IMG/VR virus record: IMGVR_UViG_3300027733_000001
Strand: one strand, 5' to 3'
DNA: 64,000 nt
Source: a virus
Shown here piece by piece: positions 27,656 through 49,838 of the stretch (within the stretch, counting starts at the first letter, position 1; every line of letters starts with the position of its first letter). A model generated the notes under the pieces. That model was not told the origin of the DNA. It worked only from the letters and a program-made list of their open reading frames with translations, and made no database searches. Made by a program: the position numbers and the translations under genes.

Positions 27656-29506
27656 TTAACTCTTTTCTCCAAAACCTACACCATACGCTAGTCCTGGAAT
27701 GGGACTGGCGCCTTTTAAGTCTGATGTAGCGCCTTTATTAACCATATTAACGAAACGTTTGGCTAGATTGGTGCTGTTTAAAACATGCATCCAATCGTCA
27801 TGGTGCTCTGGAATATCTACAAGACGCACCATCACAGGCTCAAAATTAGGATGCTCGTCATGAACAAGCACAGCTTCGATATTATGCTTTTTAAGCTCCG
27901 AGATGACGGCTGAGGTGACCTTTGTACCTATAGTGTAGTGAAGTTCGGGCTTTTCTAGATATTTACCATATGCCAGATCAAGCCTAAGCATCTTTGCCGC
28001 AGGTCTAGGTACATAGTCTTTTTCTATCGCTGAATAGGATACTACCTGGTCGGGGAGATAGTCACCCATTCCTTCAGGGTCGGTGATCTTTACATGATCG
28101 ATAGCTGCCTTAGCTATCAATTCAAAATTACGCCTGTTGACTGGAAGTTTGCTATCGTCGAAAGCTTTCTTCATAGCCTCCATATAATACTTCCTTCCAT
28201 CACCAATTCCACGGTACTTTACCACTTCTCTAGGGTCTACTAGACCAGAACTGAGTACTTGTCCTTGCTCTACACGGTCACCCAGTTTCACAGTAGGAGT
28301 TTGATCTATACCTATGTAATGTTCATGGTCGTTTACCGAAATAAAATGTCCACCTGCAGCTGCTGGCGCAAGCTTGGTGACAAAACCATCTTCCTGAGCT
28401 AGAGGCGCTCTACCTATGAATGTTTTGGGTACATTCGCAAGCTGATTAATAAGCTTAAAGCCCTGCTGACCCCCTAGACTGGTTGCTGCCCCTCCAGAAT
28501 GCCTAGCTTTCATGGCGCTTTCTGTGAGAGGTTCTGCCACAGCCGTACCTGCAACTAGACCTATATAACTGTCCATCGCAGCCATACCCTTTTCACGCTT
28601 ACCTACACACATCTGACATAATCCGCCGGAATGATGCTTTTTATTTGACTGACACGTCATCGGAGAACGTATGAATATGTGGGACACTCCTTTGTTTTTA
28701 AGGTCTGCCAACATCTTTGCGGTAACCTCATTGTTACGGTTGTGTCCGCCCACAGTTTTGGCTAGATACGCTCCTATAGACTCACGATCACTTATAGGGA
28801 TATCTATACCGTTCAAAGTTTCGCAGTCAGCTTCAACGATCTGCAAAGGCATTAGCGCTCTAGCAAACTGTTTTGATCCGTAACCTCCTTGAGCTACCGA
28901 AATTTTCTTCAGTACCTCTCCAGATCTAGTACCGTAGGCTGTAGTCAAATATTCAGGAAGAGTTAGGCCTTCTGCGAAAGAGCTCTTGATAGGTATATCC
29001 ATCTTGGGCTTACCTGACGCATCGACAACTATACCTTGCGTAGCTATAGTGCCCCTATACTGTGCAGGGGAGCCTCGGGAACCTGCCAGAATAATCTTAG
29101 CCAAAGATTTATTATCCTTGAGTCCTTTATCCAGGATGTCTCGTTCAATACTAGACATCATGTTATTGTAATGATCAAAAATCTGCTTATCTTTTAGAGC
29201 CTGAGAATCGTTGGAAGATTCTACTGTGGTTTTAAATTTCTCAAAATTATCCCATAGCTTGTTCTTGTCTATCGGGGATATCAGATCCTTGAGCGTTATA
29301 GATGTACCCTGTCTGGTGGATATTTCAAAACCTAGCCTTGTCAGATCAGATGCTATCTTACTGTATTCGTTTGGAGCCTTTTCAGCCAGCTCGGCAAACA
29401 ACTTGGATATGCCTTTCCCGTCAAGCATAGCCCCATCAACAAGCTCATGAAATTGATGAGGTATGAAGAATTTCAATAAGACTCTTCCAACAGTCGTGGT
29501 TGCCAT
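27656..29506 (-). CDS. rpoC: DNA-directed RNA polymerase beta-prime subunit, C-terminal part
   Basis: TTVGR, AGSRGS, IKSSFAEGLTLPEY, bridge-helix region, DCET...SPMTC...LCQMC Zn site, trigger loop EPLTESAMKARHSGG, SBHM-like insert. Confidence 0.9.
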   Translation of the reverse strand: MATTTVGRVLLKFFIPHQFHELVDGAMLDGKGISKLFAELAEKAPNEYSKIASDLTRLGFEISTRQGTSITLKDLISPIDKNKLWDNFEKFKTTVESSNDSQALKDKQIFDHYNNMMSSIERDILDKGLKDNKSLAKIILAGSRGSPAQYRGTIATQGIVVDASGKPKMDIPIKSSFAEGLTLPEYLTTAYGTRSGEVLKKISVAQGGYGSKQFARALMPLQIVEADCETLNGIDIPISDRESIGAYLAKTVGGHNRNNEVTAKMLADLKNKGVSHIFIRSPMTCQSNKKHHSGGLCQMCVGKREKGMAAMDSYIGLVAGTAVAEPLTESAMKARHSGGAATSLGGQQGFKLINQLANVPKTFIGRAPLAQEDGFVTKLAPAAAGGHFISVNDHEHYIGIDQTPTVKLGDRVEQGQVLSSGLVDPREVVKYRGIGDGRKYYMEAMKKAFDDSKLPVNRRNFELIAKAAIDHVKITDPEGMGDYLPDQVVSYSAIEKDYVPRPAAKMLRLDLAYGKYLEKPELHYTIGTKVTSAVISELKKHNIEAVLVHDEHPNFEPVMVRLVDIPEHHDDWMHVLNSTNLAKRFVNMVNKGATSDLKGASPIPGLAYGVGFGEKS

Positions 29507-29934
29507 TATCTTTTAAGCCGGTTTTGAAGTACATCAAACAACGATACTTGAGCAGTCTTACTTACCTGGTTATGCACCTGGCCCACTCCAGGAAAGTCTT
29601 TAGAGTCTGCGGCATCTAGAGAAAGTTTCTTAGTGTCCTGTTGTTTGTTAGGAAGGACTATTTCTTCTTTTTCTTTCTGCATCTTATTCAGTGCATCAAA
29701 TTCCTTAAACGCATCACCCATCAATTCTCCCTCAGTATTAGACTCAGCTTGTTGGTCGGGGGTAGCCATAGTAATATCGTTATCACCAAGCTCCTCATCC
29801 TCGGAGTTATTGATTGTTCGGGGATCTGAAAAATCCTCAGCTATCTTTGATTTGATAAAACAGGCAAGATCATAATTTTCATCCTCGCGAGCGAAGGAAT
29901 CCAAGTAGGATGCTAGTTTTGTAAAGTCCGGCAT
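29506..29934 (-). CDS. Acidic K-x-A protein
   Basis: MPDFTKLAS...SKTAQ; stop overlaps rpoC start (TAATG). Confidence 0.6.
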   Translation of the reverse strand: MPDFTKLASYLDSFAREDENYDLACFIKSKIAEDFSDPRTINNSEDEELGDNDITMATPDQQAESNTEGELMGDAFKEFDALNKMQKEKEEIVLPNKQQDTKKLSLDAADSKDFPGVGQVHNQVSKTAQVSLFDVLQNRLKR

Positions 29935-29945
29935 ACAATTAAAGA

Positions 29946-30836
29946 TTATGAGCCCATTGGGGTAGGGTATATGCCTCCTCCACCCATCATGCCTTGCTGA
30001 TCAGTTTGCTGCTGTTGTTGCGCCTGCTGCTGGGCAGCGTCTGCTTTCTGCTTACTCTGATCCATTTTCTGCTTATGAGTGTCCGCTAATTGTTTAACCT
30101 TCAACAAAGAGGCTGTAGCTGTGCCCTTACCTACAAGGTCTAGCAGCTCGCGAACAGTTAATGTAACCTTAACGTTATCCAGCTCATTCTTTGCTTCGAT
30201 GGCCGAAGCTTCCGCTTGAGAAGCGTCTTCTTGCGTCGCGTCTTGCCCCTGCTGTGCAGACTCCTGTGGCTGCTGAGGCATACCTTCTCCGCCGCCCATC
30301 ATTTCTGGGGAATATCCTCCACCTCCACCCTGTAAAGCTGCATATAAATCTTCTTCAGTAGATGCCTGCGCAACCATCCCTCCTTGCTGAGGCATTCCCT
30401 GCTGCGGCTGAGGTTGTCCTTGCGGTGCTCCTCCCTGCTGAGCCATTTGGGCTTCTTGTGCCTGTATCTGCTGCATCAAGGCCATCAATTGCTGCTGCTG
30501 CTGGTCAGGGGGCAGATTCTGTAGCTGCTGCAGAGTGGGAGCAATCTGCTGCTGAACTTCAGGAGGAAGATTTTGCGCCTCAGCCATAACTTGACTCATC
30601 AGATCTTGACCTGCAGGCTGCTGCGCTTGCTGCGGAGCCTGTGCAGCTTGAGGCGGTTGTGCTGGTGCAGCTGCTGCTTGCGGTTGAGCTTGCTGCTGTT
30701 GAGGTGCGCCCTGTTGCTGAGCCTGTTGCTGTTGAGCCATGGCATCAGGATTAGGCACAAATGCTTTTTTTACCACCGGCTTAGAAGCCTTTTTAGTGAT
30801 ATTGTTATAGTTTTCGATTAGTTCGGCAATTTTCAT
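29946..30836 (-). CDS. Gln/Pro/Ala-rich disordered K-x-A protein
   Basis: 296 aa with polyQ runs; MKIA...TKKAS...VKKAF at N-terminus. Confidence 0.65.
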   Translation of the reverse strand: MKIAELIENYNNITKKASKPVVKKAFVPNPDAMAQQQQAQQQGAPQQQQAQPQAAAAPAQPPQAAQAPQQAQQPAGQDLMSQVMAEAQNLPPEVQQQIAPTLQQLQNLPPDQQQQQLMALMQQIQAQEAQMAQQGGAPQGQPQPQQGMPQQGGMVAQASTEEDLYAALQGGGGGYSPEMMGGGEGMPQQPQESAQQGQDATQEDASQAEASAIEAKNELDNVKVTLTVRELLDLVGKGTATASLLKVKQLADTHKQKMDQSKQKADAAQQQAQQQQQTDQQGMMGGGGIYPTPMGS

Positions 30837-31033
30837 GTAGCGTTCTCCAGTTCAATTATCTTAAAAATTTTTTCACGTAAGTCTTTTCTTATAGTAGACA
30901 GTTTGCCTTGTGCTGCGGTGTTACTAAGTTCATGACGGCCTTTTTCAATAGCGATAAACGTATTTAAGTACATCTGCAACTCATCAAGCTTTTCATTTTC
31001 ACTCAACTGCAGCCATATATTTTCATCAAGCAT
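30833..31033 (-). CDS. Small helical hypothetical protein
   Basis: 66 aa, 4-nt overlap with next gene. Confidence 0.55.
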   Translation of the reverse strand: MLDENIWLQLSENEKLDELQMYLNTFIAIEKGRHELSNTAAQGKLSTIRKDLREKIFKIIELENAT

Positions 31034-31065
31034 AACGCAAACCTAGGTAAGAATAAAGATTATTA

Positions 31066-31086
31066 TTGTGCGCCTGCTCCGCACAA
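31066..31086 (-). terminator. Stem-loop after RNAP fusion gene
   Basis: TTGTGCG-7-CGCACAA; weak U tract. Confidence 0.3.
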
Positions 31087-31093
31087 CTAATAC

Positions 31094-34087
31094 TTATACA
31101 TCCACCCGATCGCCAACATCAAGCTTTCCCGCTAAAAAATCTTTCACAACTTCTTGAGCCGAAGAATATTTCTTGGGAGTATTTTTCTTGTCTTCGAAAC
31201 TAGCTGCAAACAATCCGGTCGCAGATTCGTTTGATGGGGTATACATCGGACCAAAAGTCCTGTGATAGATTAGGTTTTTCTCGGGCAGCAATTTCTCTTT
31301 AATTTCCTCCTTGGCTTCATCCGTAGCCGGGAGCTGCACATTGAGCTGGTCTCCGTCAGAGTCTGCTCCATAACCTTTAAACACTAGTGGACTCATCTTT
31401 ATAGAGAAGTCCTTGGGATCTGGGTTCATCTTCAGGTACATTCCCTGAAAATTGTATTTTGATAGCTGTGGATCTCTAGTCACGATACCCGGCCGATCTT
31501 CCATCTCTAGATGTAGAGCAGTCAAGGCTAACGGATGCTTTTTCTCGAGATATTCTCTAGCTTTTGTGGCAGGTACTCCTTGGCGCACAAGTCGACGAAT
31601 AATGAACGGTCCAAAGATATTCCAGGCCAGCGGCTGAGGAATACTTGCCTGATTAAGATCTAGTTTAGCGTCAGGTAACAATACAGCTCTACCTACCAGG
31701 TCAATAGGTTTGTTAACAACCTTCGCCTGGAACATAGACTCTTTCGCTGATCCGCCTTGAAGGCCTAGAGCCGAAGCAAGCAACCCTTTATATTTTTTCT
31801 CAATACTTTTCTGTTTGATGGGACCGCCGAGACCATACACAGCCTTAAGCCCGTTATAGATTTGTTTTCTTGCGGTGTGTAAATGCTCCGGATCAGTGTC
31901 TGGATTGTCTTTTGCCTGTCCTAGCGAGTTGTTAACAAGCATAAGATCTTTATACAGCTCATTAACATCTGCAGTTAATGCCTGATCTCCCTGAACCATG
32001 ACAGGGCGATATTGGGCAGGAATGACCGGGATGTTAGACAACAGTATGTCATCTAGCTTAAGATTATTGCTCTTAAGCATTGTAAGGAAGCTCAGACTTT
32101 TAAGTGCGTTGTCTCTCCCTGTCTTGCGTTTAGATTTTACCAAATTCTTAAGCTCTGTAATCTTATGATCGATATCTATACGTTTAATTTCTTTCTCAAG
32201 TTTGCCTGAGGCAATAGCTTCCTCGAAAGCGACTTTTGTCATGTTAAGTAATTTACGCAAATGATCTTCAACCATAGGATTTGGGATCCTATGGTGTAAT
32301 GCCACATGATTGTAATGGTCGCCATGAATACCTACAAGGGTAGGGTCAAATAGTCCGTTGTCTTCTGGAACTAGCTCATCTTTTTTGATTTTATAGCTGA
32401 GAGGTTCTTTAATTTCTCCTCGAGACATAGCTACAATGTCTTTGTCTGTCTGAGGTAGAATATGGAATTTAGAACCTTCTTGCTGCACATTTACACCTGC
32501 CCCTTTAAGGTGACCTATAAATTTTCCAAAGATAAACGGCACTTTAGGGGGAGGAGGAGGCTGACCTAGTTTTAAAGCAGTCCAATACTCGTCATTCTTT
32601 GTAGCCCGTACTGTGGCAATATCTCGTAGCACAGCTGTAGCATCATTAGATAATGCCACTGTGGTAGCTAGATTACCGACACGCTTAGCTTTTTCGTGAG
32701 AGCCTGCCTTGCTCGGCTGCATATTAATATCGTACGTAGTGGCTGCAGACCTCGTAGATACTTTGTCTTCTGCTATATGATGTAGCCGGTTAAAATATAA
32801 AGGGCCTGTCAAAACATCGATATGCTTACCTGATTGAGGGTCATAGAGTTTTTCTGTATCTTTGACTCCGTGCTTATCGAGAATATCTATGACTTTCTGT
32901 ACGGCTGAACCTTCTGTGAACCCTGTCATCTTAAGAGGTTTGCCTAGCTTTTGAGCGAGTTTGCCTAGTCCGATAGTGTTAACCAATCCTGGAGCTACAC
33001 GAGATGTAACACTCATCGAATTAAGCATTACATCTATGGGCTTACCGTCCTCTCCTTGAGGCATGTGAGTATCTGGAATGATATGTACGACACCTTTTGC
33101 ACCGAAAGGCATATTAAGCTTATCTCCGAAGCTCATCGGTCTTTTTGTTTTAACAGTAACAGCAATCAGCTTACCTGAGTTAGATACATCCGTTACCTCT
33201 CCATCATATTCATACTCCCAGGGGATGGATACATCCGAAAATGCATTACGAATTACCTTTGCCAGCTTACCTAGCTGGATATCTACCGATTTAAGTGTCT
33301 TTGGCTGAAAAGCCAGAATGACAGGGTCTCCGTGCTTTAAAATAGTTCCTTTTTTGGCTACACCTGCCGAATCTACGCTGACCAGCTGATCATTATAGTA
33401 CTTGTTTGGGAACAGTGATACATACTTATCCTTGTCGACAATCACTCCACGGGCAACCTCCATTCTCACAGGTATCAACTGCTCTCCCTCTAGCTTTTTT
33501 GCTGCAGATTCGGAAATTGCCAGAGAATCTTCAAAGTTTAAAGATCTGAAAGGCATAATCGCCGTTTTGAGGTTCATTCCAAGACTTAAAGAACCTTTGT
33601 GGTCTGAATAGTTTGAAGTAGCCAGCAACTGTCCTGTCTTTACCTTATCTCCTACTTTTACTGTCGGTGTATGGTGGAGATAACTCTCTCTGCCAATAAT
33701 GTAGTTACTGTAGAGATCGTGATGATGCTCTTTTCCGTCAGCATCCTTAATTATCAGCGAATCGTCACTAATGTGATGTACTGTACCTGTTGTTTTGGCA
33801 GAAAGGCTGACCAGCTTACCGAAAGATTCGTTGAAGCTCTGCTTGCTTCCTTTGGCAGAAGACTGAACAAGTGGAGCCTCCCTGTTCACAAGAGTCATGG
33901 CCTGCAATGAAGATTTGTCGCCAATTAGTACACGGGAACCCGACACAGAGCTGAGCCCAGGGATTAGATTTGTAACAGGACTGAAAAACTCTGAAGGATC
34001 AGGAATTCTGTACTTAGCCTTTGTAGATGCTGGGACTTTGGTCAGCTTACCGTGCTGAAGTATATATTTGTGACCTTGGGTAGACAT
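31094..34087 (-). CDS. rpoB-rpoC: RNA polymerase beta C-terminal / beta-prime N-terminal fusion containing the catalytic centre
   Basis: beta motifs NLIP...QAM, NFEDSLAISE, GDKL...GAKG, DVMLN...SRV, RLHHIAEDK; then beta-prime SRGEI, GLFD, IPVIPAQYRP, KPIDLVGRAV, TRDPQL, GADSDGDQ; start revised to ATG 34087. Confidence 0.92.
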   Translation of the reverse strand: MSTQGHKYILQHGKLTKVPASTKAKYRIPDPSEFFSPVTNLIPGLSSVSGSRVLIGDKSSLQAMTLVNREAPLVQSSAKGSKQSFNESFGKLVSLSAKTTGTVHHISDDSLIIKDADGKEHHHDLYSNYIIGRESYLHHTPTVKVGDKVKTGQLLATSNYSDHKGSLSLGMNLKTAIMPFRSLNFEDSLAISESAAKKLEGEQLIPVRMEVARGVIVDKDKYVSLFPNKYYNDQLVSVDSAGVAKKGTILKHGDPVILAFQPKTLKSVDIQLGKLAKVIRNAFSDVSIPWEYEYDGEVTDVSNSGKLIAVTVKTKRPMSFGDKLNMPFGAKGVVHIIPDTHMPQGEDGKPIDVMLNSMSVTSRVAPGLVNTIGLGKLAQKLGKPLKMTGFTEGSAVQKVIDILDKHGVKDTEKLYDPQSGKHIDVLTGPLYFNRLHHIAEDKVSTRSAATTYDINMQPSKAGSHEKAKRVGNLATTVALSNDATAVLRDIATVRATKNDEYWTALKLGQPPPPPKVPFIFGKFIGHLKGAGVNVQQEGSKFHILPQTDKDIVAMSRGEIKEPLSYKIKKDELVPEDNGLFDPTLVGIHGDHYNHVALHHRIPNPMVEDHLRKLLNMTKVAFEEAIASGKLEKEIKRIDIDHKITELKNLVKSKRKTGRDNALKSLSFLTMLKSNNLKLDDILLSNIPVIPAQYRPVMVQGDQALTADVNELYKDLMLVNNSLGQAKDNPDTDPEHLHTARKQIYNGLKAVYGLGGPIKQKSIEKKYKGLLASALGLQGGSAKESMFQAKVVNKPIDLVGRAVLLPDAKLDLNQASIPQPLAWNIFGPFIIRRLVRQGVPATKAREYLEKKHPLALTALHLEMEDRPGIVTRDPQLSKYNFQGMYLKMNPDPKDFSIKMSPLVFKGYGADSDGDQLNVQLPATDEAKEEIKEKLLPEKNLIYHRTFGPMYTPSNESATGLFAASFEDKKNTPKKYSSAQEVVKDFLAGKLDVGDRVDV

Positions 34088-34141
34088 AGAAGTGATCGTA
34101 CGGCACGAGATAAAAAATATCAATCTGCTTATTCAGATCTG

Positions 34142-34441
34142 TTAAGAGTCTGACTCATCCTGGAAGCGTAGCCCGCATCTCCACAAAGCTTCAGCCATGT
34201 CGTCGGAGATCTCATCCACGACGTCGTTCTGTATTTCCCACAGTGCGCAATGAATGAACTCGTCGATGAGGGTAGATAGCAGCTCTTTGCCTTTTTCCCT
34301 CTCGTCGATATAGACGGTCTTATTCTTGGTTTCAGGATGCTCGCACATCCCACGCGCTCCTTTGAGGCGAGTAACCACAAAGTTATACCTCTTTCCTCTG
34401 ATGGTAATGGTCTTGATCTGCTTTAGGGCCTTTGCGCTCAT
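34142..34441 (-). CDS. Small zincin-like protein (DExxH variant)
   Basis: GMC...VYID...LSTLIDEFIHC resembles phage minimal metallopeptidases; start revised to ATG 34441. Confidence 0.5.
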   Translation of the reverse strand: MSAKALKQIKTITIRGKRYNFVVTRLKGARGMCEHPETKNKTVYIDEREKGKELLSTLIDEFIHCALWEIQNDVVDEISDDMAEALWRCGLRFQDESDS

Positions 34442-34448
34442 AAAAAAC

Positions 34449-34477
34449 ATTATACCTGGGTTTCAGAGGCTTGGCAA
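34449..34477 (-). promoter_or_regulatory. sigma70-type promoter heading the leftward operon, probably leaderless
   Basis: TTGCCA-17-TATAAT-7-ATG. Confidence 0.75.
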
Positions 34478-34603
34478 CACCTCCCAGAGATGGTGGGGTG
34501 CGCTAGGCCTGTATTTAGTTGATAGTCCTCCAAAACTCCCCAACTCATTCTCATCTTTACTCGTGACATTCCCTACCCCATCGTACATCTCTAGATAGTT
34601 CTC

Positions 34604-36238
34604 ATGATCATTCCAAAGGCTAGAATCTCCAGCGCAGATGTAGACGCTCTCATAAGCTGCGCAAGCATTGACGACTCCTATAGCTTCTCTTCTGCTGAAA
34701 CTGAGGCTCATGATGTCTCTCTCACTCCTGACTCTTTTGACTACGACTATACCTATGCGAAAACTGTACCTGCTCCCTCTGACAGTCTCATAGAGAAGTT
34801 TAACTCTCACTCTAGTGACCTATACAATGCTGCTTGTAGTGTTCGCTCCTCTAGGAAGGTTGTCTCTAGATATGACATTAACTGGACTAGCATCGAAGAC
34901 TATACGATGCACTGGAATCTCCTAGATAAAGAGTCTCAGGTCTCTATTCGCTCTCTGGTTCTGAGTGACCATGCTAACGCTAACAGGTTTGGTCTGAAAA
35001 AACGAAATCTAGAATCTCATCTCTTGCTTCATATAGGCTGTGACATGGACAACATTGTAAACAACGGCGGTGAGAGTGTTCGCTCTAATCTCAAGTCTCC
35101 AGATCCTAAAAGCCCCAACAAGGGCTATTCAAGGTCCTGCCTGCACAACCGTACTGTAGACGCTAAAACAGCTCTCAGGGCATACAAGAAGTTCGACAAA
35201 GAGTTCTCTCCTGCTCATCTCTTCAAACTAGGCTTTGTTGCCTATCAGGCTGTAATCACTCCCAAGAACTCTCTAGCTCTGGATATTGACCCTCACAAAA
35301 CCAAGGAAGCTATCCACAGCTTCTTTCGCAAGAACACAGAGTTCCTGAGCAAGCTAGCCAACAAAAGGCGCAAGATCATGAGCTATGCCTACAGTCATGA
35401 AATCAGTGTAGATTCTATCCTCGACAGTGTGTACCGGCCTCATACCCATGTACTCTTCTTTGTGAAAGCAGACAGATATGCTATCGAGGAAAGCCAGCGC
35501 TTTGTAGAGAGTCTAGAGGAATCTATCAATCTAGAGCTAGCTGACAGAAACTGGAGCACCCACAAGCTGTCTGTAGACGGAGAGATGCTTCCATCTGTAG
35601 CCAGAAAGTATTCTGAGATAGAAAGAAGCTTCGAGTACTTCCATCGCGCATACAGTCTAGCTGACCAGTATATGCGTGAAATCAGAGAAGACAACGTACG
35701 AGAGCTCAACAAAGCCACAGTAGAAGCCTATAGAAACCTGATCTGGTTCTTCAGGGGCGAGGAGGGTGGAGCTGGAAGAAGAGGAATCGCCAGATTCAGA
35801 TCAAGTCACATCCCTAGAAAGGACGAGACTAGCAATTACCTACATCCACTATTGTCAAAAGCTAAAAAAACCACTACAATCAAGAAAGAAAAATTAAAAG
35901 TCAAGAACTATGCCCATAGTGTGGCTGCTTCTACAGTTGTAGAACCATCTATCCTAGAGGCTAAAAATACTCTACCTAGCTATGCAAAGACTGAACGAAG
36001 AGCCTCAAGAGCAGGAAAAATCTGCATCGCTTCAAGAGTATCTGAACTACTTGCGCCTAGAACTACACAAGCAGGCACAAGAGCTTGGAGAAGACTGCCC
36101 ATACAGCAAAGAAAGAATCGACGAGATCACCAGCAGTGCCGAGAGCTTCGAGAAGGCTGCACAGGAAGAGGCTCAGTGTGTCTGGGCAGGAATCGAAGAC
36201 GTCTTGCGCAAAGAGGGAGCAGATCAAGACTTCATTGA
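34604..36238 (+). CDS. HUH endonuclease, rolling-circle Rep-like
   Basis: Motif 1-like AVITPKN, motif 2 SYAYSHEISV...YRPHTHVLFF (35432..35461), candidate motif 3 FEYFHR; last 257 nt overlap next gene. Confidence 0.6.
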   Translation: MIIPKARISSADVDALISCASIDDSYSFSSAETEAHDVSLTPDSFDYDYTYAKTVPAPSDSLIEKFNSHSSDLYNAACSVRSSRKVVSRYDINWTSIEDYTMHWNLLDKESQVSIRSLVLSDHANANRFGLKKRNLESHLLLHIGCDMDNIVNNGGESVRSNLKSPDPKSPNKGYSRSCLHNRTVDAKTALRAYKKFDKEFSPAHLFKLGFVAYQAVITPKNSLALDIDPHKTKEAIHSFFRKNTEFLSKLANKRRKIMSYAYSHEISVDSILDSVYRPHTHVLFFVKADRYAIEESQRFVESLEESINLELADRNWSTHKLSVDGEMLPSVARKYSEIERSFEYFHRAYSLADQYMREIREDNVRELNKATVEAYRNLIWFFRGEEGGAGRRGIARFRSSHIPRKDETSNYLHPLLSKAKKTTTIKKEKLKVKNYAHSVAASTVVEPSILEAKNTLPSYAKTERRASRAGKICIASRVSELLAPRTTQAGTRAWRRLPIQQRKNRRDHQQCRELREGCTGRGSVCLGRNRRRLAQRGSRSRLH

Positions 36239-36821: not shown

Positions 36822-36822
36822 T

Positions 36823-37635: not shown

Positions 37636-37636
37636 T

Positions 37637-38038: not shown

Positions 38039-38039
38039 T

Positions 38040-38796: not shown

Positions 38797-38800
38797 CGCA

Positions 38801-39901: not shown

Positions 39902-39902
39902 C

Positions 39903-40691
39903 ATGAAACTAGATATAGACCAACTTAATAAGGGTATTGAGGCTGAAATGAGTAAGACATCGATGATGTCTGTAGGTATTCCCGCCGCCGCCAGAGCTGC
40001 AGCTCCTTCAATTGCTGGTACAGCTGGTAAAACAGTAGCCAAGTATGCTCCAGTTGTAGGTGGACTTGTACATGGAGGTCTCGCAGTCAATGATGCTATG
40101 AACGGAGACTGGACCGGCGCAGCAATGAATACCGGGTCAGGTATAGCCTCAGGCCTAGGACTTACACCATTATCTGTCGGCCTGGATGTTGCCAATGCTG
40201 GAAGATCGATGGTGGGTAGTGCAGGTAACTGGGCAGGTAACGCTATAGGTAACACTGTAGGTAAATATGCGCCGTTGGCTATGGCAGGCATAGCCGCTTT
40301 GGGCGGCGGCAACAAAGCGCGACAGTCTCCGATGTATGCTCTACCGTATAATGGTCCCAGACCTCAGTCTATTATAAATCCGTCCTCAGACCCTCACTCT
40401 CTCGCAGCACCGCAAATGTTCCAGGAAAGTCTTGCAGGTACTCCACAACCATATCAAGGAAAGCTGGCTTCTTATGTAGAGAAAACATCCGGGGTCATGG
40501 ATGCATTTGCCGGCGCGGCTGCCCGTAAAGCTGTCGATAATGTTTTCAATGCAGCTGTTACGCCTGAGCAACCTGCTCCAGCAGAGCACAAAGAAAAAGA
40601 GCTCGAGATTACTTCACAGTACCCTGAGATTGCAGAGCTTCTTAAAGACGAGCAGAACAAAGCCTACCTCCAAAAGCTTTTAAACACATAA
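39903..40691 (+). CDS. Gly/Ala-rich probable virion protein with internal duplication
   Basis: AGKTVAKYAPVVGG and IGNTVGKYAPLAMAG; GKLAS. Confidence 0.6.
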   Translation: MKLDIDQLNKGIEAEMSKTSMMSVGIPAAARAAAPSIAGTAGKTVAKYAPVVGGLVHGGLAVNDAMNGDWTGAAMNTGSGIASGLGLTPLSVGLDVANAGRSMVGSAGNWAGNAIGNTVGKYAPLAMAGIAALGGGNKARQSPMYALPYNGPRPQSIINPSSDPHSLAAPQMFQESLAGTPQPYQGKLASYVEKTSGVMDAFAGAAARKAVDNVFNAAVTPEQPAPAEHKEKELEITSQYPEIAELLKDEQNKAYLQKLLNT

Positions 40692-40738
40692 ATCTTTGCT
40701 TGCTTTGCTAGCGGTAGACTATTAGGGTAGGACTAATT

Positions 40739-40969
40739 ATGTCAGCCGCAAATAAACAAATTTACATCCCTGAGATCAGTATCAAAGGCTCATTCATGGA
40801 AGAAATTGGTAGCGTTGAAGATAAAGTTATGTATCCAGGCCCTACGTTTGACATTTCTTTATCTGCAGACGACTTTGCAAATGCAGAGGAATATCATACC
40901 ACATGGATCAACATCACTAGAGCCGTAAAAACTAAACTCAACAAGAATGCATCAGTCCGAGCCTCCTAA
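40739..40969 (+). CDS. Small hypothetical protein
   Basis: 76 aa immediately upstream of RNAP beta N fragment. Confidence 0.5.
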   Translation: MSAANKQIYIPEISIKGSFMEEIGSVEDKVMYPGPTFDISLSADDFANAEEYHTTWINITRAVKTKLNKNASVRAS

Positions 40970-41612
40970 AAATACTCGCGCGTTTTTCGATCCTGAAAAA
41001 CTGCGGCACATGCTATTCAATACGGCTGTCGATTCTTTCGGTAAGAAGATCAATTCGATCGAGACTCAGGACTATAAACTCAGTGTCAAAAACCTGAAGA
41101 TGGACATCCCTCATGTCACATCTACAATGCAAAAAAAGCTGGTGCTTGAGAAGAAGGATTTGACTGCTCCACTGAAAGGTACAGTAGAGCTAATACACAA
41201 GGCTTCAGGTAAAGTAGTTGAATCTAAACACACTACGATAGCTCACATTCCGTATGTTACTAATCATAATACTGTTATCTATAATGGTTCTGAATATGAG
41301 GCAGTAAATCAGCAGCGGCTTTTACCTGGCATCTATTCAAGAATTCGTCAAGACGGTATACCTGAAGCGCACATCAATCCTGAAGCACGTACAGGGCAGT
41401 CGGGCAGAATTCTTTTCTTACCTGACAAGCAACTTTTTGTACTAATGGTGCGTAACTCTCAGGTTCGATTATATGGCATCCTTAGGGATATGGGTATAAC
41501 TGATGCCGCATTAAAAGACGCGTGGGGTGAGCAGATACTGAACGCTAATCGGACACAATACAAGGGAGACGAGATCGACAAACTTTACACAATCCTAATT
41601 GGCGATGAATGA
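40947..41612 (+). CDS. rpoB: RNA polymerase beta subunit, N-terminal fragment
   Basis: LTAPLKG...IAHIPYVT..NTVIYNGSEYEAVNQQRLLPGIY matches the beta N-terminal Y.APL / G.IP.MT..GTFIINGTERV.VSQL.RSPGV pattern. Confidence 0.8.
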   Translation: MHQSEPPKNTRAFFDPEKLRHMLFNTAVDSFGKKINSIETQDYKLSVKNLKMDIPHVTSTMQKKLVLEKKDLTAPLKGTVELIHKASGKVVESKHTTIAHIPYVTNHNTVIYNGSEYEAVNQQRLLPGIYSRIRQDGIPEAHINPEARTGQSGRILFLPDKQLFVLMVRNSQVRLYGILRDMGITDAALKDAWGEQILNANRTQYKGDEIDKLYTILIGDE

Positions 41613-42009
41613 GATCATTATAGATAACGATGACGCCCCTCACACATATGTGAAGGAGAGCACAGTTGAGGGCTATGGGCTTTTTGCTGCAAAAGACTTT
41701 ATCAAGCATGAGCTAGTCATTGACTACAGGCTTTTTCCTAGAGACTGGAAGAAAAAATTGTTCACAGAACTCTCAGAAGAGCAAATTAGAAAAAACTGGT
41801 ACGTGATGCTGAGCGATGAGGAATGTATCGCTAGCGATAAATGGAGCAAATTCAGCTATATCAATCACTCCAGAGAACCAAACTGTGCTTGGGTGCTGAG
41901 CATTCACAAAATTATCGCTAACAGGGACATAAAGAAAGATGAAGAGCTATTTATTGACTATCGGCTTGAGCCCAGACCAAACAGAGTATGTTACCCAGAA
42001 TGGATTTGA
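41605..42009 (+). CDS. SET-domain lysine methyltransferase
   Basis: GYGLFAAKDF, YINHSREPNC, ANRDIKKDEELFIDY; no post-SET Cys cluster; start overlaps the rpoB-N stop. Confidence 0.85.
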   Translation: MNEIIIDNDDAPHTYVKESTVEGYGLFAAKDFIKHELVIDYRLFPRDWKKKLFTELSEEQIRKNWYVMLSDEECIASDKWSKFSYINHSREPNCAWVLSIHKIIANRDIKKDEELFIDYRLEPRPNRVCYPEWI

Positions 42010-42012
42010 CGC

Positions 42013-42041
42013 TTGCCTTGTCTGGGACTTTATGCGATTAT
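42013..42041 (+). promoter_or_regulatory. sigma70-type promoter
   Basis: TTGCCT-17-GATTAT with TGn extension. Confidence 0.45.
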
Positions 42042-42150
42042 TAGCCTAGCAATGGAGTAGATCAGCGATCCTCTGGAGACTTACTAAAAAGTCTCTGTTG
42101 CATCCCAGGCTTTCCTTGTAACTTAGTAAACAACAAAACAAAACAAAAGT

Positions 42151-42822
42151 ATGCCTACAGCAGTAACTACAAAATACGTCAAGAAAATGTCCGCATCCTC
42201 TTCCGATGTTGCAGGACTCAAAAGCACTCGCTATGAAAAGCTTCAGGTGAGCTACGGCTCAATCGAAAGAGGCTTTTCGGGAACAGGCTCTATCGCAGGC
42301 ACCGTTCTCACGGTAGCCACAGTCACATCAGGGTCCATCCAGATCGGCACGGTAATCTCCGGCACAAACGTCACACCTACTACCCGTGTCGTTTCTTTTG
42401 GAACAGGCACCGGTGGAGCTGGAACCTATAACATCGTGACTGCCGATACCCAGACTGCTGCCCTCGGTAATATTTTCGGCACCTCCTATGCTTTCGGAGA
42501 CACACTTGTGTTTTCTGAAGTGCCCAGCCAAGACATCGTCAGGGCTACTATCGTCGCCCATGCTGGTGCCGCTGGTCCTGCCGTGCTCGATATCTACCCT
42601 GGTTCAGATAACTCTGGAACATTCACATTGGGGCTGACTGACGCCACTGGAGCGAACACTACTCCTCCGAAGATCAGCTATATCATTGAATATGTGCGTG
42701 GTACAGGTAGAGTAGGTCCCAGTACCTATGAGTCTGGTGAAGGTGAACTCCTCAAAGTGATCATCGCCAATACTGGCGGCGGCGCTTCAGACGCTATCGC
42801 TGAAGAGCAGGTTTCTGCATAA
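42151..42822 (+). CDS. Abundant virion surface protein (fibre/decoration-like)
   Basis: Contains GSIAGTVLTVATVTSGSIQIGTVISGTNV...GTGTGGAGTY module typical of phage structural proteins; biased codons; own terminator. Confidence 0.55.
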   Translation: MPTAVTTKYVKKMSASSSDVAGLKSTRYEKLQVSYGSIERGFSGTGSIAGTVLTVATVTSGSIQIGTVISGTNVTPTTRVVSFGTGTGGAGTYNIVTADTQTAALGNIFGTSYAFGDTLVFSEVPSQDIVRATIVAHAGAAGPAVLDIYPGSDNSGTFTLGLTDATGANTTPPKISYIIEYVRGTGRVGPSTYESGEGELLKVIIANTGGGASDAIAEEQVSA

Positions 42823-42843
42823 TTAGTGGTTAGTTTAAAAATC

Positions 42844-42878
42844 GAGACGCATCCTTAACCGGGTGCGTCTCTTTTTTT
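42844..42878 (+). terminator. Intrinsic terminator
   Basis: GAGACGCATCC-TTAACC-GGGTGCGTCTC-T7. Confidence 0.9.
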
Positions 42879-42959
42879 GCAAAAATTCGTTGCACCTTAT
42901 CTTGGTTGCAGCGTATATTGGATACCTGACGCCAACAAGCGTCTTTAGAAACCCTATAT

Positions 42960-43127
42960 ATGTCTGAGCAAGAACCATCTAAAGAAGAAAAGATCTACAA
43001 CCTGGTGATCGAACTTGAGATTGCCAAACGCAACAAGCGTGACGTTGTAAAAGCACACAACGAAGAAGTGAAACGGATTCAAGCCGAGATCAAAGAACTT
43101 TTAACCGACAACCAAGAACTAAACTAA
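42960..43127 (+). CDS. Small coiled-coil protein (55 aa), not in ORF track
   Basis: MSEQEPSKEEKIYNLVIELEIAKRNKRDVVKAHNEEVKRIQAEIKELLTDNQELN; preceded by TTGCAC-18-TATATT; stop 1 nt before next ATG. Confidence 0.7.
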   Translation: MSEQEPSKEEKIYNLVIELEIAKRNKRDVVKAHNEEVKRIQAEIKELLTDNQELN

Positions 43128-43128
43128 T

Positions 43129-43386
43129 ATGAGTAACCGAGTAGAACTACCTATTGTGACAGAAACTGCCCCGGAGAATACGCATGTATCTTTGCTGCTC
43201 ATTGCGGACGGATTGCGTCAGGCTGAGCAAAATCTGAAAGAGCAGGAAGAGAATGTAAGGAAATTGTCAGAACAGCTCAATCAGCTGCAGCAGCTACGTG
43301 TTGCTACTACTGCACAAAGAAACCTATTATCTGATCTTCAAAACAAAATTATAGAGCTGTCAAACACGCAGCCTCCTACTAAATAG
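43129..43386 (+). CDS. Coiled-coil hypothetical protein
   Basis: 85 aa heptad-rich. Confidence 0.6.
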   Translation: MSNRVELPIVTETAPENTHVSLLLIADGLRQAEQNLKEQEENVRKLSEQLNQLQQLRVATTAQRNLLSDLQNKIIELSNTQPPTK

Positions 43387-43389
43387 CTT

Positions 43390-43728
43390 ATGTTTACGAT
43401 TGTCGCTGTAGCTTTCATCGTAGGTTATCTTATGCTCTTATGGCTCAAGACAGATGCCTTTGCAGAGTATATGAACCTTTTAAGGTTGAATGATTGGTTG
43501 CACCTGGATGAGTACAATCAACTTCATCGTGAAGGCTACAGCGGCAACTATCCTGATTTTTTGTACGAATACTACAAGGATAAGTTTTTTGTAAGATTGG
43601 TTACCTGTCCCATGTGCTTAAGTTTCTGGACAGGCATTATCTCAGCACTATACATAGACTCATTCAGTGGGTTGCTGTGCGCTCCTTTGATCTTGTTTTC
43701 TTACTTGTTATTTAATAAGATGCTTTAA
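43390..43728 (+). CDS. Membrane protein with CxxC (DUF1360-like)
   Basis: N-terminal TM, LVTCPMCLSFW, further hydrophobic segments. Confidence 0.5.
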   Translation: MFTIVAVAFIVGYLMLLWLKTDAFAEYMNLLRLNDWLHLDEYNQLHREGYSGNYPDFLYEYYKDKFFVRLVTCPMCLSFWTGIISALYIDSFSGLLCAPLILFSYLLFNKML

Positions 43729-46694
43729 TGTCGCTAAAAATTGATCCTACGTCGGTACATCTAGGTAAGAACGCTGGAGGAGCTATAGACAATGTTTATG
43801 TCGCCAGTTACGTTCCCACCGATCCTGCCACGTTACCAATTACATGTAATCTTCCGCCTGCATTAAATTACACTCCAGGCAGCGCGACACTGATACCGCT
43901 TCAACCATCTTGTACATACAATTTTGCTGATGTGTTGGGAATTCCCCCAACTCCTCCTCCCCCTAATCCTGTACCATATAAAGCTTGTGAGTCGCTAACA
44001 GCTACTTCAAATATTATAACCACAGAGGCTACCAAAAATTCTTCATTAAGCCTCGTTGCCAGTGGTCCTATTATATCTGAAACCGGTACAGCCGACTGTA
44101 CAATAAAGTTGGTGGGTATTTTAGATATTTCCGCCTGTAGTGACTTTTCAGCCAACTCTATAGTTTCTTTCAGCAATGCAGCTGCAGGTTCTTCTCTAGC
44201 AGTAACTGCAGCTAGTGCTCCTCATTGTGGAGTCACTCTTATAGGTAACATAGATATTAGCGCTTGCGAAAGTTTTACAGCTACCTCAAAAATTACATAC
44301 GGAGGAGCACTGCAAGGCTCGTATCTGAACTTTGTTTCTCGAAGTATCCCAGATTGTGGTTTCGACCTGACCGGCGCATTCAATATTGATGCGTGTGAAA
44401 CGTTTAACGCTCAATCGAATATTGCCATCACTGGGGCAGCAGTCAAAAGAAGTATTTTTGAAATATCTCCTCAGTCTACACCAAATTGCGGATTTGTGCT
44501 GACCGGTGACGTAGTCATTGACGCCTGTACAGACTTTACAGCGACAGGAGGAATTAACTTTTTAGGCGCCGCAGTGAAATCTAGTTCGGTTAAAGTTGTT
44601 GCTGCAGAACAACCTAACTGCGGACTGGTATTATCTGGAGATGTAGTCATTGATGCTTGCGCCACGTTCACAGCAGTAAACAACTTTAAAATCACTTCAT
44701 CTAGTGGTGTAGTGAATACGATTACACCAATATCAATCGTATCGCAAAGTACTCCAGACTGCGGGTTTACTCTCAACGGTGAAGTCAGTATTGACGCTTG
44801 TGCTAGTGCAAACGTAAGCATCATTCCAGACCCTCAACAGCTAGGTTTTATAAACTTAAGGATAGGTGTGCCTCAAGGGCAACCAGCTAGTGCCGGATTG
44901 ATATATTCTTCAGCACCATTGTCTTTACGTAGTAGCACAGTCTATCAGGAAGGATGCAATACGACCTTATCCATCTCGATGGACTCTATTGACCTCCAGC
45001 TTCCTGGATACCCTGCAGTTATCGACTATACTCCGGGTGTTCTGGATGGATGTATGTGGGAGGAAAATACGGACGGTATATACCTATATCAAGATCCGTA
45101 CAGCGAAGCTTTATACATCGCTGGAGCTATACCGAAACCTTGTTTTGTATGCGATTCGAGCAGCTATAAGCAGGCAGATGGGCAGGTTCGACCTTTTGTT
45201 TATACTGACCTAGAACTGAACACTCTCAGCGTTAATAAACTTGTTGCTCCGCAATGCTGCACGATCAATGCAGATAATCTACTAGACCTCTGTAACGGGT
45301 ATTTTCAATTCCTAGATATTAACGGCGCTCAGGTAAACATAGAGTCCAAATCTATCCAGATATCTTCAGATGCATACAACTATACGCAGATCTATCCATC
45401 AGATATTCGTGTAGCTGACGCCTACCGTAATGCTCAGCTAGAGTCTGGGTCACTCACACTAGACGATACATCTCTGCCCAACTCGTTCATGTATGCTACC
45501 GCTCATTCATTGAGCTACTCTGATGCACTTAACGATGAGTTTAATCTAACTGCGCAGCAGCTCTCGTTCACTGCTCCGGACTTGAGCAATGTCATTGTTA
45601 ATACGGAAGGTGTGTATGCTAACTCTTGTGCAGGCAACTACGCCGCGATGCAGGACAATGCACTCACTATGGCTCCTTTTGTTGGTTCGGCCACCTATAT
45701 GCAGTTAACCAGCAGTATTCTTAGTCTAGTGTCGAGTGGTACAACCTACGCAAATCACGCACCCAACTACTCGTACCTCTATACACCCACGTATTACAAC
45801 TACATGGATAGTTACGGTTTAATGACTAACACCATAGGTACAGGTCAAATCGCAAAAGTCCGCCCTACAGGGTTTTATGTGGAGACGGATGTAAATCATG
45901 GAGCCTGGATGCAACCTGACTATATGGGTATAAAGGCGTCTAACGAAACTTGGACCAGAGTTGATCCCTACCAGGTGGCTGTATATGGGCTAAATAGTTT
46001 AGGTGCAGCATCTGCTGCCAACATAACACCTACTAATGTATATGTTGGAGGTCACTCTGGAGGCTACCCGTACACATATATGGCAGACAACTATTTTTCT
46101 GCCAATGAGTCAGATCTTAAATATTCAAGCATTACGCCAACCACGCTATATATCCAGGCTGACAACAATACATATTCCTATGTTTCTCCGTACGACATAA
46201 AAGCGGTTAAAATTGACGGTAATGGAACACATCAAGCATACCACAACCCCTGGGAGTTCAGAGTTACAGCAGCCAATAACATTAGATATGCTAATTTATC
46301 TGAAGGCAGCGTATATGTACAACAGGACACTAGCAACTATTCCTATCTCGCTTCGGGCGAAATAAAATCTGTCAGTGGTGTATGTTATACGTACCAAAAT
46401 CCTTGGGAACACAAAGCCTCAAGTACCGACTCTACCGATTACGGTTCTCTAGGACGCACGTGGGTGCAAGTAGGGAAGGACAGTACTAAAGGTACCCTAA
46501 CTAAAGACACACTAAAATTAGAAACCAGTAACATATCGTATACGCAGATGACCCACGGCACGATAACTATTAACGGTAAAAACGTATATCTTGAGCCCAA
46601 AAATGCTAATAACGCCTATTTCAGAGCTCTAACTGTATGTACAAACGTATCTACTGGTGCAACCGCCACTATATACGTATTGGCTCACGACTAA
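43728..46694 (+). CDS. Tail fibre/spike with Cys-containing repeats and beta-helix-like C-terminus
   Basis: 988 aa, six 43-50 aa repeats with paired Cys, Tyr/Ser-rich strand repeats, C-terminal FRALTVCTN. Confidence 0.6.
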   Translation: MSLKIDPTSVHLGKNAGGAIDNVYVASYVPTDPATLPITCNLPPALNYTPGSATLIPLQPSCTYNFADVLGIPPTPPPPNPVPYKACESLTATSNIITTEATKNSSLSLVASGPIISETGTADCTIKLVGILDISACSDFSANSIVSFSNAAAGSSLAVTAASAPHCGVTLIGNIDISACESFTATSKITYGGALQGSYLNFVSRSIPDCGFDLTGAFNIDACETFNAQSNIAITGAAVKRSIFEISPQSTPNCGFVLTGDVVIDACTDFTATGGINFLGAAVKSSSVKVVAAEQPNCGLVLSGDVVIDACATFTAVNNFKITSSSGVVNTITPISIVSQSTPDCGFTLNGEVSIDACASANVSIIPDPQQLGFINLRIGVPQGQPASAGLIYSSAPLSLRSSTVYQEGCNTTLSISMDSIDLQLPGYPAVIDYTPGVLDGCMWEENTDGIYLYQDPYSEALYIAGAIPKPCFVCDSSSYKQADGQVRPFVYTDLELNTLSVNKLVAPQCCTINADNLLDLCNGYFQFLDINGAQVNIESKSIQISSDAYNYTQIYPSDIRVADAYRNAQLESGSLTLDDTSLPNSFMYATAHSLSYSDALNDEFNLTAQQLSFTAPDLSNVIVNTEGVYANSCAGNYAAMQDNALTMAPFVGSATYMQLTSSILSLVSSGTTYANHAPNYSYLYTPTYYNYMDSYGLMTNTIGTGQIAKVRPTGFYVETDVNHGAWMQPDYMGIKASNETWTRVDPYQVAVYGLNSLGAASAANITPTNVYVGGHSGGYPYTYMADNYFSANESDLKYSSITPTTLYIQADNNTYSYVSPYDIKAVKIDGNGTHQAYHNPWEFRVTAANNIRYANLSEGSVYVQQDTSNYSYLASGEIKSVSGVCYTYQNPWEHKASSTDSTDYGSLGRTWVQVGKDSTKGTLTKDTLKLETSNISYTQMTHGTITINGKNVYLEPKNANNAYFRALTVCTNVSTGATATIYVLAHD
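43983..44801 (+). repeat. Six tandem 43-50 aa two-Cys repeats
   Basis: Consensus AC-x2-F-x-A...S-x-P-x-CG-x2-L-x-G-x3-ID. Confidence 0.85.
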
Positions 46695-46706
46695 AACAAT
46701 AAGCTT

Positions 46707-47717
46707 ATGCCTCAGCTACCGGCAGTCGGAAATTCCTGTAAGTGTGATTGCAAAAAAATAGATCCGCCTGTAATCACTAGCGCAGGAAGTGCATCTGGTG
46801 AAGCTAAAAAAGCTTTTTCTTACACCATAACTGCAACAAACAGTCCGACTTCTTATAATGCTACAGGCTTACCGGCAGGGCTGAACATCAACACATCCAA
46901 TGGAGTTATTAGCGGAACACCTACAACAGCAGGTACGTACACTATAACAATATCTGCAAAAAATGATGGAGGTACAGGAACAAAAACACTTACACTGACT
47001 GTAGCTGCTGCCGTAATACCTGCGACTTGGCTACGCATCCAGGCTACATTCGACCTCGGCGGCTTATCAGCTATGGCGCGCCTGAGTAGTGTAGCTGGAC
47101 AATACGCTGGTGCCGAAGCGGTGAGTAACGGCTATCGCGATTGTATGCAAACTTCTCTTCTAAATAATTCTACATATATTAAATTTACAGGTTACACACC
47201 GGCCTGGACAATAACATGGTTAAACGGACGCACTTTTTATGACTCAGAGCGTTATTCAGGCAATCTTGCTTTTACTGCTGATGCTGCTCTTTACAAAGAG
47301 GTACAATTAGGCGGGTACCCAAATTACAGCTGCTCTTATCTATGGGATATAAACGTAGCCTTATGGCGACAATATAACCCAACTGTTCAATTCATGAACG
47401 GTACCATACCTGGTATTTGGCGCCACGACGCAGGAAACTATGGGAACCCAAGCCTAGGAAATTTTAATATATGGTCTGCTTTTTATACAGCGGCACCATT
47501 AACAGGTTATGATAACCCTAATGGAATTAGGCAGCCCAATGCTTCCGCCAGTTGGATTAGAGGTACCGAAAAATCTTTCGGTGTACCTTCAGGTTGGTGG
47601 TCTGGAAAGGGTAGCTGGTGTTACTATTTTGTATATGCCAGAAATTTTTCGTTTTCCGGGAACAATACGGCCGCATTTTCAATAGATACCTGGAACAGTA
47701 CTTACACATTGAGCTAA
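46707..47717 (+). CDS. Putative Ig-domain (He_PIG) virion protein
   Basis: PVITS...FSYTITATNSPTSYNATGLPAGLNINTSNGVISGTPT; N-terminal CKCDC; aromatic-rich C-terminal domain. Confidence 0.75.
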   Translation: MPQLPAVGNSCKCDCKKIDPPVITSAGSASGEAKKAFSYTITATNSPTSYNATGLPAGLNINTSNGVISGTPTTAGTYTITISAKNDGGTGTKTLTLTVAAAVIPATWLRIQATFDLGGLSAMARLSSVAGQYAGAEAVSNGYRDCMQTSLLNNSTYIKFTGYTPAWTITWLNGRTFYDSERYSGNLAFTADAALYKEVQLGGYPNYSCSYLWDINVALWRQYNPTVQFMNGTIPGIWRHDAGNYGNPSLGNFNIWSAFYTAAPLTGYDNPNGIRQPNASASWIRGTEKSFGVPSGWWSGKGSWCYYFVYARNFSFSGNNTAAFSIDTWNSTYTLS

Positions 47718-48406
47718 TGCTCTGGTACGTCCACTGTAGAGCTTAAAAATTCCTGATGATCAATCCATACAGGTTTTCCTGTAGAGTTATCTATCACTTG
47801 TCTGTATAACTTACCGTCGTCTCCTTTACGGATGTTATTCACAAAGAAATTTACTACACCGATTGTGGTGGCTTCTACAGTTTGAATAGGGTCCAACAAA
47901 CCAAATTGAGATTCATTAACCTCTCTAGAGCTATCTGGAATTGCCTCAGTAGATCCTATGCCTCCAGCCCCCATCTTGGTTACTTTGTGGGCTAGCATAT
48001 ATTGCTCCATAGGATTAACCCCTTCGATGTTTTGAGCCAGTGAGTTTCCTACAAAAACACTCTTTACTTGGGGAGAAAAAAACCCTGCATGTAACCAAGA
48101 AAGATTTCTTTTCTGCCTAAGTTTGCTCTTAGCTTTAAACTGTACCTTACCTGCATCATGGTCGATATGCTCTTTCAGATAGTCTTCTGCTCCTAGAAAT
48201 TTAGAAAAAATTACATTGTCTCGATCGTCTGCTTCTACATGACGTCCAAAGACTTTTAATAGCTTTTTTGACGCATCTAGTATCAGTTGAGGAGTTACAT
48301 AGCTGATACTATTGCCTAGTGTGCGTCCCATGACCCCTGCATCAAGCTTCATGTTCTTGAAGTAGGTTTTCAACTCATTTATTTTTTCTTGTTTACTTAT
48401 AGCCAT
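47714..48406 (-). CDS. rpoB: RNA polymerase beta subunit, middle fragment
   Basis: SLAQNIEGVNPM...KVTKMGAGGI...SREVNESQFGLLDPIQTVEATTIG matches QLSQFMDQ.NPL...LSALGPGGL...RDVH.SHYGRICPIETPEGPNIG. Confidence 0.88.
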   Translation of the reverse strand: MAISKQEKINELKTYFKNMKLDAGVMGRTLGNSISYVTPQLILDASKKLLKVFGRHVEADDRDNVIFSKFLGAEDYLKEHIDHDAGKVQFKAKSKLRQKRNLSWLHAGFFSPQVKSVFVGNSLAQNIEGVNPMEQYMLAHKVTKMGAGGIGSTEAIPDSSREVNESQFGLLDPIQTVEATTIGVVNFFVNNIRKGDDGKLYRQVIDNSTGKPVWIDHQEFLSSTVDVPEH

Positions 48407-49724: not shown

Positions 49725-49838
49725 AGGCAAGATTTAAATTTTCGCACCAGAAATTTAAGTTCTTGTAGGCAAAACCTAATTTTTGTTACTATATTAGGTC
49801 TACTAGGTGGCTAGTAGACAACCAAAAATAGTACACAT

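Follow-up and report, generated by a model that had tools for sequence, protein, structure and literature searches.

Does the stretch of viral DNA analysed here encode a complete bacterial-type RNA polymerase (RNAP) core, and what kind of enzyme is to be expected from genes that lie apart from one another on both strands? The stretch, hereafter the window, comprises 64,000 nucleotides (nt) of the IMG/VR phage record IMGVR_UViG_3300027733_000001, which is 167,754 base pairs (bp) long and estimated to be 86% complete. A first reading of the letters (the original prediction) proposed a core divided among four scattered genes, one of them a beta/beta' fusion, and this was borne out by the open reading frames (ORFs), by Pfam domains and by alignment to the proteins of phage Arash and to a family profile. 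All four ORFs are intact at the coordinates first proposed:

40947-41612, plus strand: betaN, 221 amino acids (aa), approximately E. coli/Salmonella beta 50-229, reaching into the lobe and stopping where proteobacteria have the insertion SI1.
47714-48406, minus strand: beta-mid, 230 aa, the remaining lobe/protrusion, the fork and the Rif-pocket region, ending at about beta residue 620.
31094-34087, minus strand: the betaC-beta'N fusion, 997 aa, beta from about 630 to 1341 (flap and beta barrel), then beta' 18-551.
27656-29506, minus strand: beta'C, 616 aa, beta' from about 572 to 948 and 1186-1286; it has the bridge helix and trigger loop but lacks SI3.

The results below identify this core as a conserved, further-split variant of a large, under-described phage polymerase family. 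The Pfam scan found Rpb2/Rpb1 domains in three of the four ORFs: Rpb2_3 in 47714-48406, Rpb2_6, Rpb1_1 and Rpb1_2 in 31094-34123, and Rpb1_3 and Rpb1_5 in 27656-29506. The same scan gave no match for betaN (40947-41612); despite this, the 221-aa ORF is assigned by alignment to the beta N-terminus, as it aligned to residues 36-222 of Arash Gp206 (E value 6e-18), 85-148 of Thermus beta (E value 2.5e-5) and 115-241 of C. difficile beta, and matched positions 40-214 of the NCBIfam rpoB model. The fusion ORF is open upstream to a TTG at 34123; its start is most likely the ATG at 34087, which gives a protein of 997 aa like the homologues. No Shine-Dalgarno sequence was obvious at any of the polymerase genes in the window.

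We analysed the pieces further using a family profile of 1453 positions built from eight single-chain relatives. BetaN covered profile positions 5-216, beta-mid 223-449 and the fusion 454-1450. As the gaps between them are only 6 and 4 positions, the claim that the pieces tile the bacterial sequence in order with no obvious gap holds. On the same profile Salmonella beta aligned over residues 50-229, 420-932, 1049-1146 and 1196-1341, followed by beta' 18-551 without a linker, so that in the fusion beta residue 1341 leads directly to beta' residue 18. The beta'C gene aligned to Salmonella beta' 572-948, where the bridge-helix and trigger-loop segments lie, and to 1186-1286. Absent relative to Salmonella are three proteobacterial insertions (SI1, SI2 and SI3) and the Cys4 zinc-binding domain of beta'. 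The latter is deleted from the fusion, the beta' part of which includes the clamp helices and the GADSDGD barrel, and it is gone in the whole family, where the consensus runs from GGlFD to the GHIEL-equivalent segment with zero cysteines. Split inteins or trans-splicing were considered and rejected, as the ends and starts of the pieces match the continuation of the Arash chain exactly with no extra residues; no inteins were matched in the polymerase genes of the window, though several relatives carry full inteins.

Both double-psi barrels and the DxDGD triad had been placed in one polypeptide, and the GDK...GAKG and GADSDGD motifs were indeed found together in the fusion chain. The beta barrel was matched by Rpb2_6 (E value 1.4e-43), with GDKLNMPFGAKG aligned to the Arash motif. 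The catalytic lysines K323 and K331, as well as D909, D911, G912 and D913 of GADSDGD, were invariant in 27 sequences. No essential domain is missing from the four pieces. An AlphaFold model of the fusion had a mean predicted local distance difference test score of 80, and its top fold matches were bacterial beta chains; likewise, the best 60 matches shown in a PDB sequence search were all bacterial beta/beta'. The pieces share about 25% identity with any bacterial RNAP, and so they are not host fragments nested within a bacterial clade. In the NCBIfam equivalog test the rpoB score was 158 bits (cut-off 896) and the rpoC score 184 bits (cut-off 963). Judged by sequence, the window proteins are homologues, and not orthologue-grade members, of rpoB and rpoC.

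The scattered arrangement is conserved. A standalone beta-mid was found at 69-94% identity in 22 IMG/VR loci and, where these extend far enough, betaN lies 4-8 kilobases (kb) away on the opposite strand with an unchanged set of intervening genes. All four pieces are present in single copy in five of five near-complete related phage genomes (165-204 kb; four estimated to be at least 93% complete and one with terminal repeats), and therefore occurred together in every related genome tested. The same scatter with intact ORFs was seen in at least 15 independent contigs, and in more distant genomes betaN is again a gene of its own (41-48% identity), separated from a divergent fusion gene by 6.5-7.5 kb. 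Comparison of betaN and beta-mid of the window with those of relatives gave 0.04-0.30 non-synonymous (pN) versus 0.7-0.9 synonymous (pS) differences per site, with synonymous sites saturated. Both genes are under strong purifying selection, and the conservation in relatives together with these pN and pS values excludes an assembly artefact and decay.

How the window relates to the rest of the family was analysed by searching 1.84 billion representative proteins with betaN, which matched 1092 clusters (50% identity; E value at most 0.001). In the best 150 of these 1092 matches betaN lies at or near the N-terminus; 54 of the 150 are single chains of 1445-3350 aa containing betaN, beta-mid, betaC and beta'N, and none of these 54 contains beta'C. 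The usual family form is a whole beta plus beta'N in a chain of ~1450 aa with a separate beta'C. The window shares with it the seamless junction from beta to beta'N in one chain and a separate beta'C of ~610 aa, but not the whole beta inside a ~1450-aa fused chain. As its beta is divided among three genes, the window is a split variant of the Arash-like family, and its clade has two additional splits in beta. A complete 481-aa gene with only betaN and beta-mid represents an intermediate form. For the 997-aa betaC-beta'N form itself, metagenomes gave more than 120 protein clusters (52-90% identity; contigs of 150-290 kb).

The longer single chains hold inteins and homing-endonuclease domains: one or more inteins with LAGLIDADG/homing-endonuclease domains were seen in P0078, P0098, P0220, P0271 and locus L035 (132-3548), in chains of up to 3350 aa. 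Enzyme domains also occur in frame at the beta-lobe site, as in P0203, P0220 and P0245, the last with a SET domain between betaN and beta-mid. When 16 proteins with a large insert at the betaN|beta-mid junction were scanned, six held an inorganic pyrophosphatase domain, five a 2H phosphoesterase, and a SET, a GNAT and a DUF5661 domain were each found once. Among 50,697 phage records betaN matched only four, those of its nearest cultured relatives (Salmonella phage Arash and Vibrio phages D69, D148 and D181), and none of the 50,697 holds the split form. The only match among 185,579 prokaryote genomes was a fusion gene, 67% identical, on JBEIIR010000023.1 (locus L044, 10,996 bp), a short contig binned into a Gammaproteobacteria metagenome-assembled genome and at best a weak hint of the host. 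A related-locus search with the deep-branch fusion P0081 returned no locus.

Next, the architecture was compared with known systems. Arash Gp206 and Gp216 and the corresponding pairs of Vibrio phages D69, D148 and D181 are 27-33% identical to the window proteins over their full length, and these phages share with the window the seamless beta-beta'N junction, the split beta' and genome-encoded sigma factors. In Arash a whole beta plus beta'N makes up Gp206 (1525 aa), Gp216 (606 aa) is beta'C, and the D69 pair is of 1527 and 609 aa (locus L043, 7567-12150 and 12789-14618), whereas the beta of the window is in three genes on two strands. The Arash authors named the proteins beta and beta' without describing the fusion (PMC10585845); in GenBank the D69, D148 and D181 polymerase genes are labelled only as hypothetical proteins. 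The proposal of a four-subunit core with its own split pattern is supported: the data show a catalytic core of four polypeptides with its own combination of splits and one fusion. As a qualification, the pattern is a conserved trait of a clade rather than private to this phage, and the beta/beta'N fusion is common to Arash and the three Vibrio phages.

The enzymes of phiKZ and AR9 resemble that of the window in being phage-encoded, in lacking alpha and omega and in having beta and beta' split into several genes, with a beta' cut within a few tens of residues of that of the window (by PHROG alignment offsets). Unlike the window, they have no beta/beta' fusion, use gp68/gp226 instead of a sigma-70-family factor and usually occur as two sets (PMC7824862, PMC13282480), whereas the phage studied here has three sigma-family ORFs and a single gene for each polymerase piece. 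The phiKZ and AR9 enzymes have also diverged much further from bacterial RNAP; none of the best 60 PDB matches shown was a phiKZ/AR9 chain. The mReC phages (Weinheimer and Aylward 2020), an aquatic, deep-branching lineage that the original prediction had referred to, are likewise metagenomic tailed phages with an RNAP readily alignable to bacterial beta/beta', but they have ordinary, separate and adjacent genes for beta (~960-1430 aa) and beta' (~900-1200 aa) in place of a fusion plus splits (PMC7481178 supplement). Membership of mReC required an NADxDGD motif and at least 800 aa in each protein, whereas the window motif is GADSDGD. The main text of that paper mentions no sigma and describes fusion only for crAssphage, and its supplement has one passing anti-sigma zinc-finger annotation (PMC7481178). 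Identity with mReC was rejected, because the architecture differs and sample identifiers did not match.

Helicobacter and Wolbachia, like the window, have a single chain in which the C-terminus of beta leads into the N-terminus of beta', and the best NCBIfam match of the fusion was the Helicobacter-type PRK09603 (184 bits against a cut-off of 5372). However, these are full-length chains of ~2850 aa in cells with alpha and omega, whereas the window chain runs from mid-beta to mid-beta'. Cellular enzymes with all their subunits also show natural cuts at similar, not identical, places, namely the gamma/beta'' cut of cyanobacteria and the B''/B' cut of archaea; going by model offsets, no more than ~30 residues separate the beta-mid|betaC cut from the archaeal boundary, and the beta' cut precedes the cyanobacterial one by ~70 residues (profile coordinates only). 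The cut sites coincide with places at which natural or engineered splits are tolerated in beta and beta', such as the SI1 site in the lobe. It is known that E. coli beta split within dispensable regions reassembles to an active enzyme. No published description of the window architecture was found in the full-text literature, the nearest being a general mention of 'derivatives with fused DPBB domains', DPBB denoting the double-psi beta-barrel, by Chaban et al. 2024.

In a tree of betaC-beta'N the 997-aa forms made up one clade (Shimodaira-Hasegawa-like approximate likelihood ratio test support 100), which lies among the single-chain forms, Arash being the first branch. This nesting suggests that the extra cut is most simply derived. 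In the betaN tree five further standalone betaN genes shared a group with that of the window (support 98). At least three changes of split state are nevertheless required over this tree, and gene fission seems to be recurrent in the family.

Apart from the four core genes, the following features lie in their neighbourhood:

34449-34477, minus strand: sigma-70-like promoter upstream of the fusion operon, TTGCCA-17-TATAAT, 11 of 12 matches, a consensus match only.
31065-31087, minus strand: terminator-like hairpin directly after the fusion stop codon, a pattern match only.
29506-30836, minus strand: two small genes that separate the fusion from beta'C.
25330-27579, minus strand: a 749-aa protein, always next after beta'C, a homologue of Arash Gp218, which is an abundant virion protein (PMC10585845).
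41599-42009, plus strand: SET-domain methyltransferase overlapping the betaN stop by 14 nt, a possible accessory.

Promoter-like sites in the region were not enriched over shuffles, and a search of intergenic DNA for 9-mer enrichment gave nothing useful as a common promoter motif. The -10 element of the listed promoter overlaps the annotated ATG of a 102-aa ORF (34142-34450), suggesting a later start codon or a leaderless transcript. Of the two small genes, one (29946-30836, minus strand) encodes a protein of 296 aa that is rich in Q, A and P, begins with MKIA and has a small conserved core (residues 203-254); the other (29506-29934, minus strand) encodes an acidic protein of 142 aa. Neither has a family match and both are partially conserved in relatives; they are probably internal virion (head) proteins and not polymerase subunits. 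As they are low-complexity or acidic and match no family, they were rejected as candidates for an alpha-like subunit. The Gp218 homologue ties the polymerase genes to the structural module; a database search with this protein gave no usable match.

The SET gene is intact, with NHS and EELFIDY motifs. A role as a fixed fifth subunit is not supported, since it lies beside betaN in only five of about 15 related loci, and phmmer found no similar SET among 150 representatives. Facing the fusion gene is a 544-aa ORF (34604-36238, plus strand) without a Pfam match. In distant relatives an SNF2-family helicase faces the fusion gene (L033, 7108-8508; L034, 7500-9290; L035, 3638-5875), and the 544-aa ORF showed no similarity to these helicases. 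The genes beside beta-mid, spanning 48644-51689 on the plus strand, encode a dCMP-deaminase-like protein, an Amidase_2 (cell-wall amidase) protein and a 616-aa protein with weak ribonucleotide-reductase matches.

What, then, would the four genes do? We consider it highly probable that they encode a catalytic core of the phage's own, made of four polypeptides, which works with the phage's own sigma factors and is probably packaged in the virion. Homology, completeness, tiling, conservation and selection are established by the results above, whereas chain assembly, sigma use and packaging are inferred. A bacterial-type RNAP core would be built from the four chains, and there is little doubt in our minds that these assemble into one enzyme. 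Members of the family normally carry beta head-to-tail with the N-terminal half of beta', so that a single chain holds the two catalytic barrels, while the other half of beta' is a protein of its own; in the clade of the window, beta has two further cuts, one within the lobe and one close to E. coli residue 620-630. The covalent beta-beta' link may take over part of the assembly job of the alpha dimer. Three phage sigma-70-family factors would recognise promoters, and the enzyme, packaged with one sigma, would be delivered with the DNA and begin transcription independently of the host.

The original prediction recognised no alpha, omega or sigma in the letters that it saw. Models PF01193, PF01000 and PF01192 gave no match for alpha or omega in the 167.8-kb record, whereas 14 of 14 control genomes matched, but three sigma-70-family ORFs are encoded outside the window and so lay beyond the reach of the original prediction. 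Two are like extracytoplasmic function sigma factors (203 and 173 aa). The third, a 210-aa RpoD-like sigma ~2.5 kb beyond the window start, shares 34% identity with Arash Gp10 and is itself present in five of five related genomes. The sigma docking sites, namely the clamp-helix segment of beta' (aligned to E. coli beta') and the flap region of beta, align well to the bacterial enzyme, and their retention makes promoter recognition through a phage sigma most likely; we thus regard use of the phage's own sigma factors by this core as likely. Packaging in the capsid, suggested by analogy with Arash, appears reasonably probable. Mass spectrometry of Arash virions detected Gp206 with the most spectra of all proteins, as well as Gp216 and Gp10 (PMC10585845), and the order beta'C, Gp218-like, Gp222-like and major capsid protein is common to Arash and the window. 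That the Arash polymerase and sigma are among the most abundant virion proteins points to a sigma-dependent, probably virion-packaged enzyme.

Several observations weigh against this picture. The N-terminal Cys4 zinc-binding domain of beta' is absent, and the pieces score far under the NCBIfam rpoB/rpoC cut-offs. An alpha-like or fifth subunit may sit in the part missing from the record (completeness only 86%), or it could be too diverged for recognition. Since redirection of the host polymerase is a common role of phage sigma factors, their presence is no proof of service to the phage core. The root of the betaC-beta'N tree depends on one long bacterial outgroup branch, and split forms arise at least three times in the betaN tree, so that any order of the fission events is tentative. 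In addition, the Arash authors warned that abundant enzymes can co-purify with virions (PMC10585845).

This last warning bears directly on an alternative, namely that the polymerase is unpackaged, being made after infection from host-type promoters to transcribe middle and late genes only, like the non-virion RNAP of phiKZ/AR9. The near-consensus sigma-70-type promoter upstream of the fusion operon would allow the host polymerase to make the enzyme early, and only a single polymerase set is present here, whereas the studied phages with a packaged multisubunit RNAP also have a second, non-virion set (PMC7824862). Nevertheless, we judge it unlikely: the fused subunit of Arash exceeded the capsid protein in spectra (PMC10585845), and the polymerase genes have virion-protein genes as neighbours and share a strand with the capsid gene.

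It is also conceivable that the phage set is not self-sufficient but forms a hybrid with host alpha and omega, the phage sigmas perhaps acting on the host core. The lack of alpha and omega genes in the record although the controls matched would fit such a hybrid, as would an enzyme far closer to bacterial RNAP than those of phiKZ/AR9. Known phage multisubunit RNAPs, however, function without alpha and omega and do not bind those of the host (PMC13282480), the covalent beta-beta' link offers an alternative assembly route, and identity to bacterial RNAP is low; a hybrid is thus quite improbable. That the genes are functionless remnants of an rpoBC operon captured from a host and now in decay, or an artefact of assembly, might be thought from their scatter over both strands and the lost zinc-binding domain, but it is already refuted by the intact ORFs with matching scatter in independent contigs and near-complete genomes, by saturated synonymous sites versus low amino-acid change, and by the retention of all catalytic residues. 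The packaged, sigma-dependent core of four phage polypeptides is therefore the explanation that we favour.

A broader interpretation can be put forward only tentatively: the family may represent a major, undescribed class of phage transcription machine, with a linked core lacking alpha and omega, a sigma cascade and injection from the capsid, in which genes are freely split and re-fused (one to four) and the beta lobe serves for docking of pyrophosphatase, 2H phosphoesterase, SET and GNAT enzymes. To our knowledge, what is known of phage multisubunit RNAPs comes almost wholly from phiKZ and AR9, the enzymes of which are sigma-less and very diverged. The present family is nearer to the bacterial enzyme and has real sigma factors without alpha and omega, and so provides natural experiments on what is minimally needed to assemble and programme a two-barrel polymerase, on where beta and beta' tolerate cuts, and on whether a covalent beta-beta' link can substitute for the scaffold that alpha provides. 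Although metagenomes hold the family in abundance, some of its GenBank records read 'hypothetical protein', and its cultured members Arash and Vibrio phage D69 allow these questions to be tested directly.

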